The position numbers were made by a program, and so were the translations under genes. From the NCBI GenBank assembly GCA_019650355.1, contig BOWX01000001.1, positions 10,514 through 74,513 of the forward strand: 64,000 nucleotides of DNA, given 5' to 3'. The number at the start of each line of letters is the position of its first letter. Within the stretch, counting starts at the first letter, position 1. The notes below the pieces were generated by a model. That model saw nothing but the letters and a program-made list of their open reading frames with translations. It had not been told where the DNA came from and did no database searches. Source of the stretch: Fidelibacterota bacterium. GTDB taxonomy: Bacteria > Fidelibacterota > Marinisomatia > Marinisomatales > Marinisomataceae. Of this stretch, positions 45,170 to 53,780 are shown piece by piece.

Positions 45170-47034
45170 ATACCATTGCTACTTCAGAATTATTCTGGGT
45201 TATCCTAGCTGGTTATGTTTTCTTTGTATTAGGTGCGGGATTATTTTTTGCAAGAAATAATCAATCAACCGAAGACTTCTTTTTTGGTGGAAGAAGATTT
45301 TCATGGTGGTTAATTGGAATGTCAATGTTGGCAACTGGTGTAGGATCACATAGTTTTGCCAAATATGCATCTAAAGGTTTTGAATATGGGTTTTCATCCA
45401 CCATGACCTATATGAATGATTGGTTTTTTATGCCATTATTATTATTTGGTTGGATTCCAATTATTTATTACATGCAGGTCAATTCCATTCCTGAATATTT
45501 TGAACGTAGATTTAATTCTACTGTAAGAAATTTATCTACGATAACCATGCTTTTATACCTGATAGGATATATAGGTATTGGATTATTGGCCTTAGGATCA
45601 TTATTACAGCCAATTTTAGGATGGGAAATTAATACTATTATTATAGTAGTAGCTATTATATCAGGTACCTATGTATCATTAGGTGGCCAAACTGCAATTA
45701 TATTTACTGACTTCTTACAAGGTGTCATTCTGCTATTTGCAGGGTTACTAATTTTTGGTTTGGGTATTGCTTATTTGGGAGGGTTTGATTTCTTCTGGAG
45801 CAATTTGTCAGCTACAAATAAGTTGCCATTGGCAGATTTTAACTCCCCACCTGACTTTAACTTTGTTGGAATTTTCTGGCAAGACGGAGTAGTTGGTTCA
45901 GTTGGATTTGCATTTATGAATCAGGCAGTAATTATGAGATTTTTAGCATCTCGATCTGTTATTCATGCTAGAAGAGCAACTATGATGAACGTATTAGTTT
46001 TCTTGCCAATAGGTACTGTTGCAGTTTCAAATTCTGGTTGGTTGGCTAGAGCTATGGAAAATATGACCCCTGGTGTTATCACTGATTTATTACCAAATGG
46101 AAGTGCAAATGGTGTTTTTACTGTTGTTGCTTCCCTGGTAGCTAATTCAGAAGCAATTTTTGCATTTTTAGTAGCAGCAGTAGTTGCTGCTTTAATGTCC
46201 AGCTTGGATTCACAAATTAATGCATCAGCAGCAGTGGCGGTTAATGATGTATATACGCCATTAAGTAAAAATCCTTCTGAAAAAACACGCTTAAGAGTTT
46301 CCATGTTTACTTCCTTGCTTGTTACCTTTGTTGGGATACAGGCAGCATTCTTATTTGCACAATATGGAACCATTTATGAGGCCCATGGTGCATTTCATAG
46401 CGTAGTGACTCCACCAATGGTTACGGTTATTTTCCTTGGTATTTTCTGGCAGCGCTTTTCATCAAGAGCAGCTGTATTAACGTTTGTCTTAGGTGCAGCA
46501 TTTATTTTCCTTGGAATTCAGTATCCTCAAATTTTTGTTCAACCATTCTCACATGGGATAGAATATGTTGAAGCAAAACCATGGTCATATATTAGAGCAT
46601 TATATAATGTAGTGGCATGTACATCCATTGGAATCATAGTAACCTTACTTACTTCAAAACCAAATCAATCGCACTATGAACAAATTAAAGGATTAACACT
46701 TTGGACTATTAAAGATGGTCCACAATTTTTTAAAGGATCTGAGGTTAATGAAAATGCAGGTAGTAAAATCACGTTTGATGGTGATATGATTAAAGTTGTG
46801 GATGACACAGATAATAAAATATATTTACCAGCAGATTTGATGAAAGATCTTGGTGCAAAAGAAGGAGATTTTGCATATATATCTGATACAAGATGGTACT
46901 TAGGTGGAATTAAATCTACTCACGCCTACATTGGAAAAATGTCATCAAGTAATAAAATTGAAATCTCTAAAAATGTCCAGAATCATGGTCAATTTGATCC
47001 TTCAAAAAAATTATTTATCGAGTTAGAATTATAA
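45166..47034 (+). CDS. sodium:solute symporter family (SSF) transporter with ~110-aa soluble C-terminal extension
   Basis: FFGGRRFSWW.., ..SIPEYFERRF.. and 13-14 TM segments typical of SSF. The last ~110 aa (KGSEVNENAGSKITFDGD...FIELEL) are hydrophilic. Confidence 0.8.
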   Translation: MNTIATSELFWVILAGYVFFVLGAGLFFARNNQSTEDFFFGGRRFSWWLIGMSMLATGVGSHSFAKYASKGFEYGFSSTMTYMNDWFFMPLLLFGWIPIIYYMQVNSIPEYFERRFNSTVRNLSTITMLLYLIGYIGIGLLALGSLLQPILGWEINTIIIVVAIISGTYVSLGGQTAIIFTDFLQGVILLFAGLLIFGLGIAYLGGFDFFWSNLSATNKLPLADFNSPPDFNFVGIFWQDGVVGSVGFAFMNQAVIMRFLASRSVIHARRATMMNVLVFLPIGTVAVSNSGWLARAMENMTPGVITDLLPNGSANGVFTVVASLVANSEAIFAFLVAAVVAALMSSLDSQINASAAVAVNDVYTPLSKNPSEKTRLRVSMFTSLLVTFVGIQAAFLFAQYGTIYEAHGAFHSVVTPPMVTVIFLGIFWQRFSSRAAVLTFVLGAAFIFLGIQYPQIFVQPFSHGIEYVEAKPWSYIRALYNVVACTSIGIIVTLLTSKPNQSHYEQIKGLTLWTIKDGPQFFKGSEVNENAGSKITFDGDMIKVVDDTDNKIYLPADLMKDLGAKEGDFAYISDTRWYLGGIKSTHAYIGKMSSSNKIEISKNVQNHGQFDPSKKLFIELEL

Positions 47035-47050
47035 ATTCCAAAAAAAAAAA

Positions 47051-47080
47051 TTGACAAATATTTTTTTCTTTGTTTAATAT
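47051..47080 (+). promoter_or_regulatory. sigma-70-type promoter for the TonB-dependent receptor leader
   Basis: TTGACA (47051-47056), an 18-nt spacer, then TAATAT (47075-47080), or TTAATA with a 17-nt spacer. An A11 run lies immediately upstream. Confidence 0.5.
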
Positions 47081-47099
47081 CTATGCGTAGTTAAAATCG

Positions 47100-47300
47100 C
47101 TTTTTAAGATGTTGAAGCAGGTCTTAATGAAAAAATTGACCTGGCCATGCACTTAAAAAGAGTTTTATTACTTTTTAAGAGTTGAAGCAGATGTGGATGA
47201 GAAAACATATCTGGCCATGCGATTAAAAAAGTCTTAGGGGGCGTTTTTAAAAGTTGAAGCTAATTTTATGAAAAGGAGATTAGGCCATGCGATTAAAAAC
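47100..47300 (+). repeat. three tandem ~60-nt hairpin-forming leader units (periods 70 and 72 nt); the last contains the receptor's SD and start codon
   Basis: Units at 47100-47160, 47171-47231 and 47243-47300. Each is YTTTTTAA..GTTGAAG-[variable stem-loop]-GCCATGC..TTAAAAAR. The stems differ in sequence but remain complementary. See the first finding. Confidence 0.75.
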
Positions 47301-50022
47301 AATTATAATATCCGTATGTCTTGTCACATCACATTTATTTTCACAAACAGGTAATTTATTAGGAACAGTTTCAGATTCAAATGGTTCCTTTCCATTACCA
47401 GGTGCCAATGTTTATTTGGAGGGAACTAACTTTGGAGGAATAACTGATTCCGGAGGAAAGGTTTATCTTTCAAATCTACCAGCAGGAAATTATAAGCTAG
47501 TAGTGTCGTACATTGGATATGAAAATCAAGAAAAAGATATTTCTATAGATGCAGAAAGTTTGAATACTTTTGCAGTAGAATTATCAGTTGGAACATTAGT
47601 TGGAAACGATATTGATGTAATTGGTAATTCTTTATCGGGACAGGCTAGAGCGTTAAATAATCAAAAAAATAAATCAAATATTAGTAATGTAATTTCATCC
47701 GATCAGGTTGGAAAGTTTCCAGACTCAAATATTGGAGATGCGTTAAAACGTGTCCCTGGAATTGCTGTATACAACGATATGGGTGAAGCTAGATTTGGAC
47801 ATGTTCGCGGAACTCCATCTAGTTTTAATTCAGCAACCATTAATGGTGAAAGAATGCCTTCCGCAGAGGCTACAACAAGAAGTAACCAGTTAGATTTGAT
47901 TCCTGCTGATATGATCCAAACTGTTGAAGTTATAAAAGCACTTACTCCAGATATGGATGCAGATGCAATAGGAGGGTCTATTAATCTTATTACACGAAAA
48001 GCTGCAGGAACACGAACATCAGTTACTGTTGGAAGAGGTGAAAATACCTTAGATCAAGCTGGTAAAATAGTACAGTTATCTGGAATGCATTCCAATAGAT
48101 CAGAAGATAGCAATTTTGGATATATGTTTAATTTTTCTTTTTATGATAACTGGACAGGTTCAGATAACGTTGAAGCTGAATGGGACGATGAAGGAAATAT
48201 TGTTGAACATGATATTAGAAAATATTTAGTTCATCGTGAAAGAAAGAGTCTTGGATTGAGATTCGATTATAATTTGGGTAATACAGAATTATATACGGAT
48301 CTTAATTATAATGATCGTGATGATTACGAAAATAGATATCGTCAAAGAATAAAGGATTTAGATGAAGGCGAAGGAAGCCAAGAGGTTAGAAGACAAACCA
48401 AGGCAGGATTGCCAGGTAATGAATATGGAAGACTGGAAGATCAAAAGCTTTTTTCCTATAAATTTGGTGGAACAAGTCTTTTAGATAAGCTAAAACTAGA
48501 TTATTCTTTTAAAATTTCAGAGGCTTCAGAGTTAAGACCGAACGAAAGATATCTAGCTTTAAGATTAAAAAAACAAACTGCCGTTTGGAATCAAAGTACT
48601 GAAAAGCCAAACTTTACTTTTTCAAATGCAATCGCTGCAGACTTAAATAATTCATGGGATTTTAGAAACTTAATTGAAGAAAGAAGAGATACGGACGAGA
48701 AGGCGAGAAGTTTTAAAGTTGATGCTGATTATAACTTTAGTGACAATTTAAAAATTGAGGCAGGATTAAAAATTAGCACAAGAAAGAAAGAAAGACGTAA
48801 TGAGTTCTATGAATTTGAACCAGTTGATGAAGATGCTTTTTTAGCTGATGCTTTTTCAAACATCGTTAGTCAAAATAAAAGTGAATGGCTAAATGACGGA
48901 GATGGAACTTCTTATAATTCTGGATCATATGTAAGCAGAGAATTTGTAGGAAATCTAGATTTATCAAACACAGCACTCTTTGAACGAGTTGTAGTTGAAG
49001 AGGAATTAGCTGGAAATTTCAAAGCGTCTGAAGATATAACCTCATTCTATGGTATGGCAACATATGATTATTCTGATCGATTATTGATAGTTGGCGGTTT
49101 AAGATTAGAAAGAACATCCTTATATGATCTTGAAGCAAGAAGTTATGATGAAGATAACGATGTAAATAATGTTATATCAGCATCTGATAATGACTATACT
49201 GATGTATTACCTTCGTTGCACTTGATATATGATTTAGATGGTGCATCAAAGATTAGGGTTGCTTTAACAAAGTCTTTAGCAAGACCTAATTACTTTGATA
49301 CAGTTCCATATCAACAAGTAAAAGTGGAAGATGAAGAGATAAAGGTTGGTAATCCTGAATTAGAGCCTACCATTTCAACAAATTTTGATATTTCTTTCGA
49401 AAGGTATTTTGATGATGTTGGGTTATTCTCAGCAGGAATGTTTACAAAAGATATAGATAACTTTGTTGTTTATACTAGTGGCTATGTAACTCAAGCTGAC
49501 AATCTACCAGACTACAATGGTTTTCAATTAGACAAAGCATTTAATGGTGGAAATGCATCTTTATTAGGAGTTGAAATTGCATTTCAAAGGCAAATATTAC
49601 CGGGACTAGGTTTATATGCTAATGTTACTGCTATTGACTCAAAAATAGATAATTTAGATCCAAAACTTCAAGAGGACAGACCTGATGTAAAAGATAATCC
49701 TATGCCAGGTACGTCTGAGCTTAGTTATAATCTTTCTATGTCATATGAAAGAGGGCCAATGACCGTACGTTTATCTCTTAATCATCAAGGAGAGTTTCTT
49801 GAAGAATTTGGTGATTCCAAATCTGAAGATAGATGGTATGATAAATCAACCTATGTTGATTTGAATGCAAATTATAATGTAAGAGAAAATATTTCTCTTT
49901 ATGCTGACTTTAATAATTTAACTAATCAACCATTGAGATATTATCAAGGAAGTAGTAGATATTTAATGCAAGAAGAATATTATAACACAAAATTTACAAT
50001 TGGTATAAAGGCTGATCTGTAA
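47287..50022 (+). CDS. TonB-dependent outer-membrane receptor with N-terminal carboxypeptidase-regulatory-like domain
   Basis: Signal peptide, then a CarboxypepD_reg-like beta-sandwich (GTVSDSNGSFPLPGANVYLEGTNFGGITDSGGKVYLSNLPAGNYKLVVSYIGY). Plug region (SSDQVGKFPDSNIGDALKRVPGI). Long beta-barrel of 911 aa. No SusD-like gene follows. Confidence 0.85.
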   Translation: MRLKTIIISVCLVTSHLFSQTGNLLGTVSDSNGSFPLPGANVYLEGTNFGGITDSGGKVYLSNLPAGNYKLVVSYIGYENQEKDISIDAESLNTFAVELSVGTLVGNDIDVIGNSLSGQARALNNQKNKSNISNVISSDQVGKFPDSNIGDALKRVPGIAVYNDMGEARFGHVRGTPSSFNSATINGERMPSAEATTRSNQLDLIPADMIQTVEVIKALTPDMDADAIGGSINLITRKAAGTRTSVTVGRGENTLDQAGKIVQLSGMHSNRSEDSNFGYMFNFSFYDNWTGSDNVEAEWDDEGNIVEHDIRKYLVHRERKSLGLRFDYNLGNTELYTDLNYNDRDDYENRYRQRIKDLDEGEGSQEVRRQTKAGLPGNEYGRLEDQKLFSYKFGGTSLLDKLKLDYSFKISEASELRPNERYLALRLKKQTAVWNQSTEKPNFTFSNAIAADLNNSWDFRNLIEERRDTDEKARSFKVDADYNFSDNLKIEAGLKISTRKKERRNEFYEFEPVDEDAFLADAFSNIVSQNKSEWLNDGDGTSYNSGSYVSREFVGNLDLSNTALFERVVVEEELAGNFKASEDITSFYGMATYDYSDRLLIVGGLRLERTSLYDLEARSYDEDNDVNNVISASDNDYTDVLPSLHLIYDLDGASKIRVALTKSLARPNYFDTVPYQQVKVEDEEIKVGNPELEPTISTNFDISFERYFDDVGLFSAGMFTKDIDNFVVYTSGYVTQADNLPDYNGFQLDKAFNGGNASLLGVEIAFQRQILPGLGLYANVTAIDSKIDNLDPKLQEDRPDVKDNPMPGTSELSYNLSMSYERGPMTVRLSLNHQGEFLEEFGDSKSEDRWYDKSTYVDLNANYNVRENISLYADFNNLTNQPLRYYQGSSRYLMQEEYYNTKFTIGIKADL

Positions 50023-50104
50023 ATTTGGTTGTTATTATTCTAATCGAAAATAAAAGTAATAATACTTGTTTTTTCGATAATAATATTAAAAATTTCTACC
50101 ATCT

Positions 50105-50177
50105 TCCGGAGTAGCTCAGTTGGTAGAGCGAGTGACTGTTAATCACCAGGTCGGGGGTTCGAGTCCCTCCTCCGGAG
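50105..50177 (+). tRNA. tRNA-Asn (anticodon GTT)
   Basis: Cloverleaf read by hand. The acceptor TCCGGAG pairs with CTCCGGA. D arm GCTCAGTTGGTAGAGC, anticodon loop CTGTTAA, T arm GGGGGTTCGAGTCCCTC, discriminator G. CCA is not encoded. Confidence 0.9.
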
Positions 50178-50213
50178 CTTGCATGCCAGGCTCAATAAAA
50201 GGAAATAAATAAA

Positions 50214-51188
50214 ATGGATTTTTTAACACTATGGTCTTTATTGGGCTTTCTATTTGCGGTATATGCTGTAACTGCAAATGATAGTATTCAAACTCTAGGT
50301 ACGTATATTTCATCAAATAGAGATATCAAGTGGTATTGGATGTTTGGATACATGGGTTCCATTTTTCTTTTCACTATGATTCAAGGCTTTTCAATAAACG
50401 ATCCAGCATTTGGAAGATTAGATAAATTTGAACCAATTACCATTCAATGGTATCATGCATTAGCTCCGCTTGTTTTAGTGGCATTAACCAGATTAAAAAT
50501 TCCAGTCTCTACCACATTCCTAGTACTTTCCGTTTTTGCTACTTCAATAGTAATGGAGCAAATGCTGATTAAAAGTTTTGTTGGTTACGCTGTTTCATTT
50601 GTTTTTGCATGTGGTTCATGGTATCTCATCAGTAAATATTTCCTTTATGAAGGGGAAAAAGGTGACAATAAATACAATAATTATTGGAGAGTTGCTCAGT
50701 GGTTAACTACTGGATGGTTGTGGTCAACATGGCTAAAGCATGATTTAGCCAATATTATGATTTTCTTACCAAGATATAGTACGGTGCAGTCATTTCAATT
50801 CCAGCTGTTTGTTGTGTCAATAATGTTATTAGGTTTAGCATTCATGTTTTATGAACGAGGTGGGCGAATTCAAGAGATTGTTTTATCTAAAACGAATACT
50901 CGATATGTTAGATCTGCTACCCTAATCGATTTAGTCTATTGTTTTGTTCTATATTATTTCAAAGAGGTAAATAATATTCCTATGAGTACAACTTTTGTAT
51001 TTATGGGAATGTTAGCCGGAAGAGAACTAGGTATTTGGCTGTCAATTGGTTATGGAAAATTGACATATACAGACAGACACAAAAAAGCTATTTTCCCAAT
51101 GCTTTATATGGATTTCTTAAGATTAATGCTAGGCTTAATGATTAGCGTTTCTTTAGCGTATGGAATTCAATGGTATTCCAGTCTATAA
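50214..51188 (+). CDS. polytopic membrane protein, distant PiT/PHO4-like (phosphate/sulfate permease superfamily) candidate
   Basis: The N-terminal TANDSIQTLGT resembles the PiT GANDVAN motif. Two internal copies of the P(V/M)STTF motif (IPVSTTFLVLSV, IPMSTTFVFMGM) resemble the PiT PVSTTH motif but have Phe where His is expected. Confidence 0.4.
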   Translation: MDFLTLWSLLGFLFAVYAVTANDSIQTLGTYISSNRDIKWYWMFGYMGSIFLFTMIQGFSINDPAFGRLDKFEPITIQWYHALAPLVLVALTRLKIPVSTTFLVLSVFATSIVMEQMLIKSFVGYAVSFVFACGSWYLISKYFLYEGEKGDNKYNNYWRVAQWLTTGWLWSTWLKHDLANIMIFLPRYSTVQSFQFQLFVVSIMLLGLAFMFYERGGRIQEIVLSKTNTRYVRSATLIDLVYCFVLYYFKEVNNIPMSTTFVFMGMLAGRELGIWLSIGYGKLTYTDRHKKAIFPMLYMDFLRLMLGLMISVSLAYGIQWYSSL

Positions 51189-52832: not shown

Positions 52833-53780
52833 ATGAGTCTAAAAAAACTTATATCTCTTTTTTCCGTCGCCATTATTTTAAGTTGTAGCCCTAAGCAAGA
52901 ATCTATTTTGTTAGAAAATCCTATGTTTGCTACTGAGCCCGTTGAAAATGCTGGATTAGACAGTATTGGATTTCTAATGAGAAAACATGTGATTATTGTT
53001 ACAGTTAAAGAAAAAAATGAAATTCATGTTTATGGTGCTATGAATGGAAAATTTAAAAAATCAATTAAAAGAGAAAATGCATTTCCTAATGGAGTAACGA
53101 CCATTAATGATCAATTTGTTTTAGTAACTGAACGAGATAATAAACAGGTTGCTGTGTTTGATTCATCGATGAATTTTTTAGGAACCTTTGGCAATAATGA
53201 ACTACGTAGCCCTTATGGCATAACTTTTTATAAGCGTGATGATAAATCTTATAAGGTATTGGTAACAGATAGTTATGAATATAATAACCCTAGAAAAGAT
53301 CGAATTCTCAGTTGGGATTTTACCATTGAAGATGGTGGATTTAGTGTTGGACCAGTCAGTATTTTGGGGAGCCCAACATTGTATCAAGTTGAAAGCATTC
53401 AAGCTGATAAACACTTTAGAACATTATTAGTGGCAGAGGAAATGGAAGAGCATCATAAAATTATGGCTTTAGATTTAACTTCTGGTGAAGTTTTAAAAGA
53501 AGATTTAGGAAATTTCAATAGGGGAAATGATCCCGAAGGTATTGCACTTGTTGCAAATCCTGATAATTCTGGATACTGGATTTGTACTGAGCAAAGCAAA
53601 ACCGATAACCGTTTTCATTTATATGATCGTGAAACATTAGAACATATGACTACTATGTATTTAGATAATGTTTCCTACACAGACGGCATTGCTACAGCAT
53701 ATATGCACGGTAAATGGTTTTTATATGCAGTAGATAATGATGCAAGAGTTGTTGCATTTGAATTACCAAAAATCGATTAA
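52833..53780 (+). CDS. beta-propeller phytase-like (3-phytase domain) lipoprotein
   Basis: Lipobox ILSCS. Blocks resembling Bacillus-type BPP: VESIQADKHFRTLLVAEEMEE, NDPEGIALVANPDNSGYWICTEQSKTDNRFHLYDR and YTDGIATA. Assignment is from memory of the family pattern. Confidence 0.5.
   Translation: MSLKKLISLFSVAIILSCSPKQESILLENPMFATEPVENAGLDSIGFLMRKHVIIVTVKEKNEIHVYGAMNGKFKKSIKRENAFPNGVTTINDQFVLVTERDNKQVAVFDSSMNFLGTFGNNELRSPYGITFYKRDDKSYKVLVTDSYEYNNPRKDRILSWDFTIEDGGFSVGPVSILGSPTLYQVESIQADKHFRTLLVAEEMEEHHKIMALDLTSGEVLKEDLGNFNRGNDPEGIALVANPDNSGYWICTEQSKTDNRFHLYDRETLEHMTTMYLDNVSYTDGIATAYMHGKWFLYAVDNDARVVAFELPKID

Follow-up and report, generated by a model that had tools for sequence, protein, structure and literature searches.

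Three tandem structured modules in the 5' leader of a TonB-dependent receptor gene of marine SAR406 bacteria

The window, that is, the whole 64,000-nt stretch of DNA analysed here (Fidelibacterota bacterium, contig BOWX01000001.1, positions 10,514 to 74,513 of the forward strand), comes from the uncultured marine lineage SAR406 (Candidatus Marinimicrobia), to which NCBI assigns cluster mates of its proteins, and carries, 5' of a gene for an outer-membrane nutrient receptor of the TonB-dependent type, an untranslated leader of about 200 bases with three tandem modules of about 60 nt (47100-47300). Bacteria of this lineage are abundant in the ocean, and TonB-dependent receptors are central to nutrient uptake; to our knowledge, almost nothing is known about gene regulation in SAR406. 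The leader is a real, undescribed RNA element of the structured, modular 5' leader kind with a narrow distribution. It is very probably a functional, structured RNA under selection, and it probably controls the expression of the uptake genes behind it. A preliminary description of the locus had laid out the promoter, the GTTGAAG and GCCATGC boxes, the Shine-Dalgarno (SD) sequence, the ATG and two mini-ORFs, and all of these coordinates proved correct on re-reading. The locus comprises the following features (scores in bits refer to a covariance model of the unit, named R1).

47051-47080, plus strand: sigma-70-type promoter, with -35 TTGACA (47051-56), an 18-nt spacer and -10 TAATAT (47075-80); 10/12 in a consensus scan
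47090-47099, plus strand: 5' segment GUUAAAAUCG, the predicted 5' end of the transcript, identical in 14 of 14 distinct leader variants
47100-47160, plus strand: unit 1, with outer helix 47100-08/47152-60, box A GUUGAAGC (47111-18) and box B GGCCAUGC (47143-50); 72.6 bits
47118-23/47138-43, plus strand: unit 1 hairpin, CAGGUC/GACCUG
47161-47170, plus strand: linker 1, AGUUUUAUUA, more variable than any other part of the leader (70-100% identity between lineages), constant in length and free of indels
47171-47231, plus strand: unit 2, with box A (47181-88) and box B (47213-20), both invariant; 82.2 bits
47188-95/47206-13, plus strand: unit 2 hairpin, CAGAUGUG/CAUAUCUG
47232-47242, plus strand: linker 2, UCUUAGGGGGC, a conserved G-run amid 30% GC; with 47231 and 47243-50, the 3' strand of an alternative helix
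47243-47300, plus strand: unit 3, with box A (47253-60), box B (47283-90, including the receptor AUG at 47287-89) and a 3' outer arm formed by codons 3-5; 75 bits
within 47243-47300, plus strand: unit 3 hairpin, CUAAUUUU/GGAGAUUAG, with UUUU (47264-67) paired to the SD purines (47276-79)
47273-78, plus strand: SD sequence of the receptor gene, AAGGAG, inside the unit 3 hairpin region
47287-50022, plus strand: TonB-dependent receptor gene, 911 amino acids, with an N-terminal CarboxypepD_reg domain, Plug and barrel; TIGR01782 subfamily (Pfam and NCBIfam)
50105-50178, plus strand: tRNA-Asn(GTT), from ARAGORN, Rfam and synteny; 3' of the receptor gene in the window, 5' of the leader in other lineages
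50214-51188, plus strand: gene for a multi-pass membrane protein of 324 amino acids, distantly PHO4/PiT-like (Pfam PHO4, E = 0.0058, below cut-off; synteny)

The three units form a tandem repeat with a period of 70 nt (TRF, Tandem Repeats Finder), and the mean column identity of the aligned units is 78%. GTTGAAG boxes begin at 47111, 47181 and 47253 and GGCCATGC at 47143, 47213 and 47283; the window contains the combined pattern GTTGAAGC-N(12-30)-GGCCATGC three times, where chance predicts 0.00. One fold is common to all three units and consists of an A/U outer helix of 8-9 bp, two closing pairs (G-C and U-G), a 5x5 internal loop and a hairpin of 6-8 bp. The internal loop forms where box A lies opposite box B, with UGAAG facing GCCAU and the AUG on the GCCAU side; by inspection, its sequences do not fit readings as a K-turn, a loop E or a UAA/GAN motif. 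Folded singly, units 1, 2 and 3 reach -20, -15.6 and -13.1 kcal/mol, respectively (z = -3.7, -2.2 and -2.2). R1 scores the three units at 72-82 bits and detected no further copy elsewhere in the 64-kb window, where its next best match reaches 19.7 bits. The leader originated when the receptor's own region of translation initiation was triplicated.

Some smaller features of the units deserve mention. Box B (47143-47150, 47213-47220 and 47283-47290) holds the 4-nt palindromes GGCC and CAUG; both lie exposed in the internal loop and could permit kissing contacts between units. In unit 1, an additional T at 47110 (GAUGUUGAAGC), present in the receptor-bearing lineages and absent from L128 and L134, creates an AUG before box A and gives the outer helix further pairs. 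By itself, GTTGAAGC occurs nine times in the window against 1.5 expected; the four other plus-strand copies (26296, 32656, 46567 and 48169) were rejected as related elements, all of them being in-frame GTT-GAA-GCx (Val-Glu-Ala) and a matter of codon usage.

No known RNA family was recognised in the leader, nor had the preliminary description recognised one. With permissive filters, the best Rfam 15 match in 46900-47500 was mir-465, whose 19 bits (E = 0.42) fall short of its gathering score of 65; at the gathering threshold the whole window yielded two tRNAs only, and the divergent leader variant of L128 matched no family, RAGATH-7 reaching 15 bits against 112. In the literature on leader or small RNAs of SAR406/Marinimicrobia, we found no description of the leader.

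Comparison with orthologous contigs indicates strong constraint on the leader. Between the window and L133/L002, the receptor proteins are 87% identical, fourfold-degenerate sites 54%, second codon positions 94.5% and the 214-nt leader 93.5%; against L138, fourfold sites are likewise 54% identical and the leader 97.7%. By these figures, the leader evolves about as slowly as second codon positions. By segment, identity is 100% for the 5' end with unit 1 and for linker 2, 96% for unit 3, 85% for unit 2, 76% for the promoter spacer and about 70-73% for the flanking genes. Among all receptor-bearing lineages, unit 3 is 96-100% identical and linker 2 is 100% identical; the L128 lineage has a single G>A in linker 2, which keeps the pairing with U. 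GUUGAAGC and GGCCAUGC are unchanged in units 1 and 2 of all lineages, and judged from these alignments, invariant boxes between varying stems are the pattern expected of a binding core. Gene conversion as a cause of the likeness of the boxes between units was considered and rejected, each unit being nearer to its own orthologue than to its neighbours and the boxes of unit 3 decaying independently. The promoter is conserved as well: in the 16 orthologous contigs that span it, the -35 element reads TTGACA or TTGACT (TTGTCA in one) and the -10 element stays within TAnnnT (TAATAT, TAAACT, TATAAT, TATTAT or TAAAAT), with about 65-78% identity in the spacer.

The stems of the units vary by paired changes. 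In a model-based alignment of 55 units, 16 of them distinct, 93.4% of the cells are paired and six of the eight inner-hairpin pairs vary on both sides; the covariation score is 0.291, compared with 0.137 +/- 0.019 in shuffles (0/500) and at most 0.127 with slid partners, values that derive from about six independent lineages and from units that are paralogous as well as orthologous. Pair 4 of unit 1 is G-C in the window and A-U in L129, L132, L139, L143, L134 and L128, and in unit 2, pair 5 is U-A, C-G or U-G, pair 6 is G-U, A-U or U-A, and pair 8 is G-C or U-A. Pairs 2 and 3 are A-U/G-C in units 1 and 2 versus U-A/A-U in unit 3. Between the window and its nearest relative, L139, the leader differs at two bases only, and these are the two sides of unit 1 pair 4. 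Because G-U pairs are frequent, the fold is possible only in plus-strand RNA. The central proposals of the preliminary description were upheld: a structured leader lies between a conserved promoter and the receptor ATG (orthologous contigs, unit folds), its hairpins stay paired through changes on both strands, between units as well as between orthologues, and the fold is under selection (leader 93.5-97.7% identical versus 54% at fourfold sites). The flip that it described in the outermost pair, from C-G in units 1 and 2 to G-C in unit 3, holds less well, since a C-G pair in unit 2 needs a bulged A and the model alignment gives C/A at that place (pair 1-61).

Among the sequences searched, the leader was found only at one syntenic locus, in 17 independent contigs from marine metagenomes; all three modules are present in 15 of them, and contig L127 ends after module 3. 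An exact-pattern scan of the metagenomes returned 18 loci, of which two are chance matches in unrelated sequence and 16 represent one and the same syntenic locus, so that the unit is not a dispersed repeat. A scan of viral contigs gave zero matches. With the looser pattern GTTGAAGC-N(10-32)-GGCCATG, at least 120 loci were obtained in genome contigs, and among the matches listed there were only chance ones; R1 found no match on 97 of these loci together with the two chance metagenome loci (716 kb of unrelated genomes, with both boxes present by chance). The preliminary description had proposed to look for the unit upstream of orthologous receptors in related genomes and metagenomes. Close homologues of the receptor, L001 (92% identity) and L002 (87%), carry the three-unit leader, whereas in the orthologue with 69% identity (L003-L005) the unit is absent and a plain spacer of 88 nt contains AAGGAG. 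Five types of locus can be distinguished.

Type (i), SSF symporter - leader - receptor - tRNA-Asn - PiT-like gene: the window, L139, L130
Type (ii), SSF - tRNA - leader - receptor - PiT-like: L002, L133, L131
Type (iii), SSF - tRNA - leader - receptor signal-peptide stub of about 45 nt - PiT-like, with the receptor deleted: L128, L135, L136, L142, L147, L134
Type (iv), SSF - tRNA - PiT-like, without receptor or leader: L144-146, L150-158, L163-165
Type (v), the 69% orthologue, in a different context

Type (iv) accounts for 16 of the 17 SSF-linked loci that were retrieved through homologues of the PiT-like gene. The promoter-leader-receptor cassette (47035-50178) lies 5' of tRNA-Asn in the window type and 3' of it in the L002 type, and in L002 (159-600) the tRNA is separated from the promoter by a pseudo-copy of the SSF gene's 3' end, about 45 nt long, part of which is deleted in L133 and L128. 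This change of side and the pseudo-copy suggest that the cassette has moved or recombined between SAR406 lineages. Several metagenome contigs break in or beside the leader (L127 ends there; L129 and L132 start there). Assembly difficulties at the 70-nt repeats are the probable cause and could conceal variants in copy number.

The receptor-less lineages of type (iii) amount to a natural experiment. They keep the promoter, the 5' end, units 1 and 2 and linker 2, and the PiT-like gene follows directly 3' of the leader. Unit 3 has decayed: in L128, the SD sequence AAGGAG has become AAAAAA and the boxes GTTAAAAC and GATTATAC, and in L134 the boxes have become GTTAAAGC and GGTTATGC. Box changes in the receptor-less lineages number 0/32 in units 1 and 2 versus 6/16 in unit 3 (Fisher p = 0.0007), and for L134 0/32 versus 3/16 (p = 0.03). 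Derived characters are common to L134 and the L128 lineage (TTAAATAAG, a G>A change in box A, a CC>TT change in box B and the same stub), so that a single deletion of the receptor probably preceded their split. Since then the two have diverged considerably, with 41% identity at fourfold sites of the PiT-like gene and 48% difference in the stub beside the leader. Over the leader itself they differ by 7% in the 5' end with unit 1, 15% in unit 2, 9% in linker 2 and 22% in unit 3 (p = 7e-14, 5e-8, 0.009 and 4e-5, respectively, against the stub). This low divergence shows that the leader is under purifying selection in the absence of the receptor, and hence that the boxes of units 1 and 2 must have a role beyond holding the receptor start codon. 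The function of the leader is not tied only to that codon, and a role confined to the receptor does not agree with the conserved leader and the intact unit 1 and 2 boxes of lineages that lost the receptor gene.

Besides the unit fold, an alternative conformation is predicted. For nine whole leaders, RNAalifold chose a long-range helix of 19 bp between 47091-47110 (UUAAAAUCGCUUUUUAAGAU) and 47231-47250 (GUCUUAGGGGGCGUUUUUAA) rather than three independent units, and additionally paired the 3' arm of unit 1 with the 5' arm of unit 2; in constrained folding, both conformations lie within about 0-3 kcal/mol of each other in 14 of 14 variants. The 5' segment 47090-47099 can accordingly either lengthen the outer helix of unit 1 or pair over a long range with 47231-47250. 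The long-range helix would account for the conserved non-repeat segments 47090-99 and 47232-42 and would break the outer helix of unit 3. These segments (47090-47099 and the linker GUCUUAGGGGGC) and the helix they may form had been overlooked in the preliminary description.

The leader also contains two upstream open reading frames (uORFs), of 12 codons (47147-47185) and 6 codons (47217-47237), which are open in all variants, with no indels in the linkers; uORF1 starts in box B of unit 1 and ends at a UGA within box A of unit 2. Their variable codons change mainly non-synonymously (V/F/I, L/S, K/N, S/G), and because their start and stop codons lie in the invariant boxes, their conservation is inseparable from constraint on the RNA. 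Further mini-ORFs that start at AUGs in the hairpin loops (MKKLTWPCT*, MRKHIWPCD*) were rejected: the loop of unit 2 is 1 nt longer in L002, L133 and L131, which breaks the frame, unit 2 of L128 has no AUG, and the loop of unit 3 in L002 has AUU.

Our preferred reading, which we put forward tentatively, is that of a cis-regulatory leader with three recognition modules for a common effector that shifts it between two folds. The analysis shows the architecture of the leader, its conservation, covariation and strand, its confinement to one locus and its persistence after receptor loss; we infer the transcription start, the existence and nature of the effector, the switch and the sign of the regulation as follows. 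The three internal loops would be repeated recognition sites for one putative effector, an RNA-binding protein or a small ligand, whose binding would favour the state with all three modules folded and the receptor SD sequence and AUG enclosed in module 3. Without the effector, the leader would refold, 47091-47110 pairing with linker 2 and the 5' arm of module 3 (47231-47250), and this would break the module 3 outer helix and release its coding-side arm. What would be controlled is the start of receptor translation and, probably, what becomes of the entire transcript, since the leader persists before the next gene where the receptor has been lost. The preliminary description had proposed that the fold masks initiation; the SD sequence and AUG do lie within unit 3, but their predicted occlusion is partial (about 0.4 unpaired), and masking is not the whole story.

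Several points weigh against this reading. The start of transcription is a prediction from the promoter, and Pfam and NCBIfam annotation revealed no candidate RNA-binding regulator encoded nearby. The unpaired probability of the SD sequence and of the AUG, predicted at about 0.4 each, is about 0.2 in the leaderless 69% orthologue, whose start site is thus predicted to be no more accessible. The long-range helix has no two-sided covariation, its pairs being invariant save for the one G>A that keeps its U partner, and repeats with complementary arms yield alternative pairings almost automatically. Some of the paired changes in the stems could have come in together by recombination, evidence for movement of the cassette being at hand. 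In the receptor-less genomes, the PiT-like gene lies about 150 nt downstream of units 1 and 2, and the proposed mechanism offers no route by which they would act on it. The unit is missing from the 69% orthologue and from most related genomes, and the leader is limited to one locus of one SAR406 subclade, in about six independent lineages, which is unusual for riboswitches. A bolder version, in which the leader is a riboswitch-like class with a minimal aptamer of about 60 nt, a UGAAG/GCCAU pocket and a cooperative triple array toggling between two isoenergetic folds after a recent triplication of the start site, is a long shot.

One alternative is a constitutive leader, in which stacked 5' stem-loops, with no effector and no switch, would shield a very highly expressed outer-membrane-protein mRNA from 5'-end-dependent decay or provide ribosome standby, or both, after the manner of the ompA 5' UTR. 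The strong and conserved promoter, a helix predicted to begin close to the predicted 5' end (at about nucleotide 3, on the promoter-based start) and the A/U-rich loops and arms all suit it, as does retention of the leader before the next gene after receptor loss, which would befit a generic stabiliser. A stabiliser needs structure only, however, whereas here the stems vary while units 1 and 2 each keep their 16 box nucleotides unchanged despite saturated neutral sites; nor does 5' protection call for three copies with conserved linkers. We consider this explanation unlikely. Units 1 and 2, or the whole leader, might also act in trans: a small RNA or protein sponge resembling the receptor initiation region would titrate a translational regulator. 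With three hairpins that expose identical motifs, the leader is reminiscent of Csr/Rsm-type sponges, and the boxes of units 1 and 2 are intact where the receptor was lost. But a scan of 46800-47500 showed no intrinsic-terminator-like site, and hence none after unit 2 or 3 nor any obvious 3' end there; the element is missing from most close relatives, as a core regulator should not be; and the GGA motif of Csr/Rsm sites is not conserved in the loops, occurring only in the SD sequence of unit 3 and in unit 2 of some lineages and missing from the loop of unit 1 and from unit 2 of L002 and L128. A role in trans is accordingly improbable.

The missing terminator also bears on control by the uORFs, which the preliminary description had listed as a candidate role and which found poor support. 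Ribosomes on the two mini-ORFs would unwind successive units and so open the receptor start, and the open frames, the indel-free linkers and the course of uORF1 from one unit into the next fit such a relay. Yet no SD-like purine run lies 5-10 nt before the AUG at 47147 or 47217, whereas the receptor gene and the 69% orthologue use AAGGAG; the distances from the stops to the next AUG, 31 and 49 nt, are too great for classical coupling; no terminator/antiterminator alternative for attenuation was seen in 46800-47500; and the frames, whose starts and stops belong to the invariant boxes and whose variable codons change mostly non-synonymously, add no evidence of their own by being conserved. Such a relay is quite improbable. 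An RNA thermometer, with the unit 3 hairpin melting as temperature rises, would have a precedent in the FourU elements that control the TonB-dependent haem receptor genes shuA and chuA (PMC3660397). In the predicted minimum free energy and centroid structures, U47264-67 pair with G76 A77 G78 A79 close to the start codon, that is, four U with the SD GGAGA through A-U and G-U pairs only. The computed unpaired probability of the SD sequence is nevertheless nearly flat, from 0.39 at 4-20 C to 0.44 at 37 C, units 1 and 2, the invariant boxes and the conserved linkers are left unexplained, and no obvious temperature cue is known for a pelagic SAR406 lineage, all of which makes a thermometer very improbable. 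Finally, the repeats might matter as DNA, as repeated operator sites or a mobile repeat, or be neutral duplication debris; a tandem direct repeat adjoining a tRNA gene, in a cassette that moved, invites this thought. It is hardly credible in view of conservation far above neutral and of compensatory changes and strand-specific G-U pairs, which are meaningless in duplex DNA. The single locus in the window and the metagenome scan speaks against a dispersed repetitive extragenic palindrome (REP) or miniature inverted-repeat transposable element (MITE), and box A has no complementary partner in the unit, as an integron attC site would require.

Compared with known systems, a leader working as in our preferred reading would most resemble tandem riboswitch arrays or protein-bound translational operators, and it is a member of no system compared here. 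The 5' untranslated region (UTR) of Escherichia coli ompA is an mRNA stabiliser that needs structure only; like the leader, it is a long, stable 5' UTR on the mRNA of an abundant outer-membrane protein with a stem-loop near the 5' end, predicted in the case of the leader, but in the leader the internal-loop sequences are invariant and the module is triplicated. In the operators of phage MS2 coat protein, ribosomal proteins and ThrRS, which contain start codons, and in the multi-hairpin Csr/Rsm RNAs, a defined hairpin or internal-loop motif spanning the initiation region is recognised by a protein, and repeated copies give cooperative or titrating behaviour; the leader differs in having no known cognate protein and no conserved GGA loop, and in carrying its copies in cis in one leader. 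Tandem riboswitch arrays include triple c-di-GMP-I riboswitches and the tandem glutamine riboswitches of marine bacteria (review PMC9481103). The leader shares with them several small modules per 5' leader, an invariant core in loops flanked by covarying helices, a last copy over the translation start and transporter genes downstream. In contrast to such arrays, it matches no class and has no known ligand, it has an expression platform only in the third copy, its module duplicates the gene's own initiation region, and it occurs at one syntenic locus of one subclade instead of at several loci or in several taxa with functionally related genes. The FourU thermometer in the shuA/chuA leaders (PMC3660397) likewise belongs to the mRNA of a TonB-dependent receptor and has four U paired to SD purines in a weak hairpin just 5' of the AUG; here, however, the hairpin is the inner stem of a larger boxed module present in three copies, two of them without an SD sequence, and the predicted access is almost insensitive to temperature. 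What sets the leader apart is the triplication of its gene's own initiation region and its retention after that gene was lost.

The leader offers a young, lineage-specific regulatory RNA whose origin, as three copies of a gene's own initiation region, can be read directly, and whose constraint can be measured in nature from compensatory changes and from a natural deletion by which leader and original gene became separated. An effector, if there is one, would hint at the substrate imported by the receptor and the PiT-like protein; if there is none, the leader would be a model for the origin of a structured 5' UTR by tandem duplication. Should the riboswitch-like class prove true, the array would control a TonB-receptor/PiT-like uptake operon in an uncultured bacterial lineage that ranks among the most abundant in the ocean.

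As for the genes behind the leader, the 324-amino-acid protein (50214-51188) contains the PiT/PHO4-like motifs ANDSIQTLGT, IPVSTTF and IPMSTTF, with its Pfam match sub-threshold, and PF01384 is precomputed on some of its homologues. Two genes beyond it, a gene for a protein of 315 amino acids (52833-53780) has a weak NHL/beta-propeller match, and its homologue in L150 has a weak Phytase match; the two genes may together form a phosphorus-acquisition neighbourhood. On the other side of the leader, a promoter-like site on the minus strand (47057-47028, 11/12 matches) overlaps the plus-strand -35 element and is oriented into the SSF gene at its 3' end; the near-palindromic TTGACAA may have given rise to it by chance.

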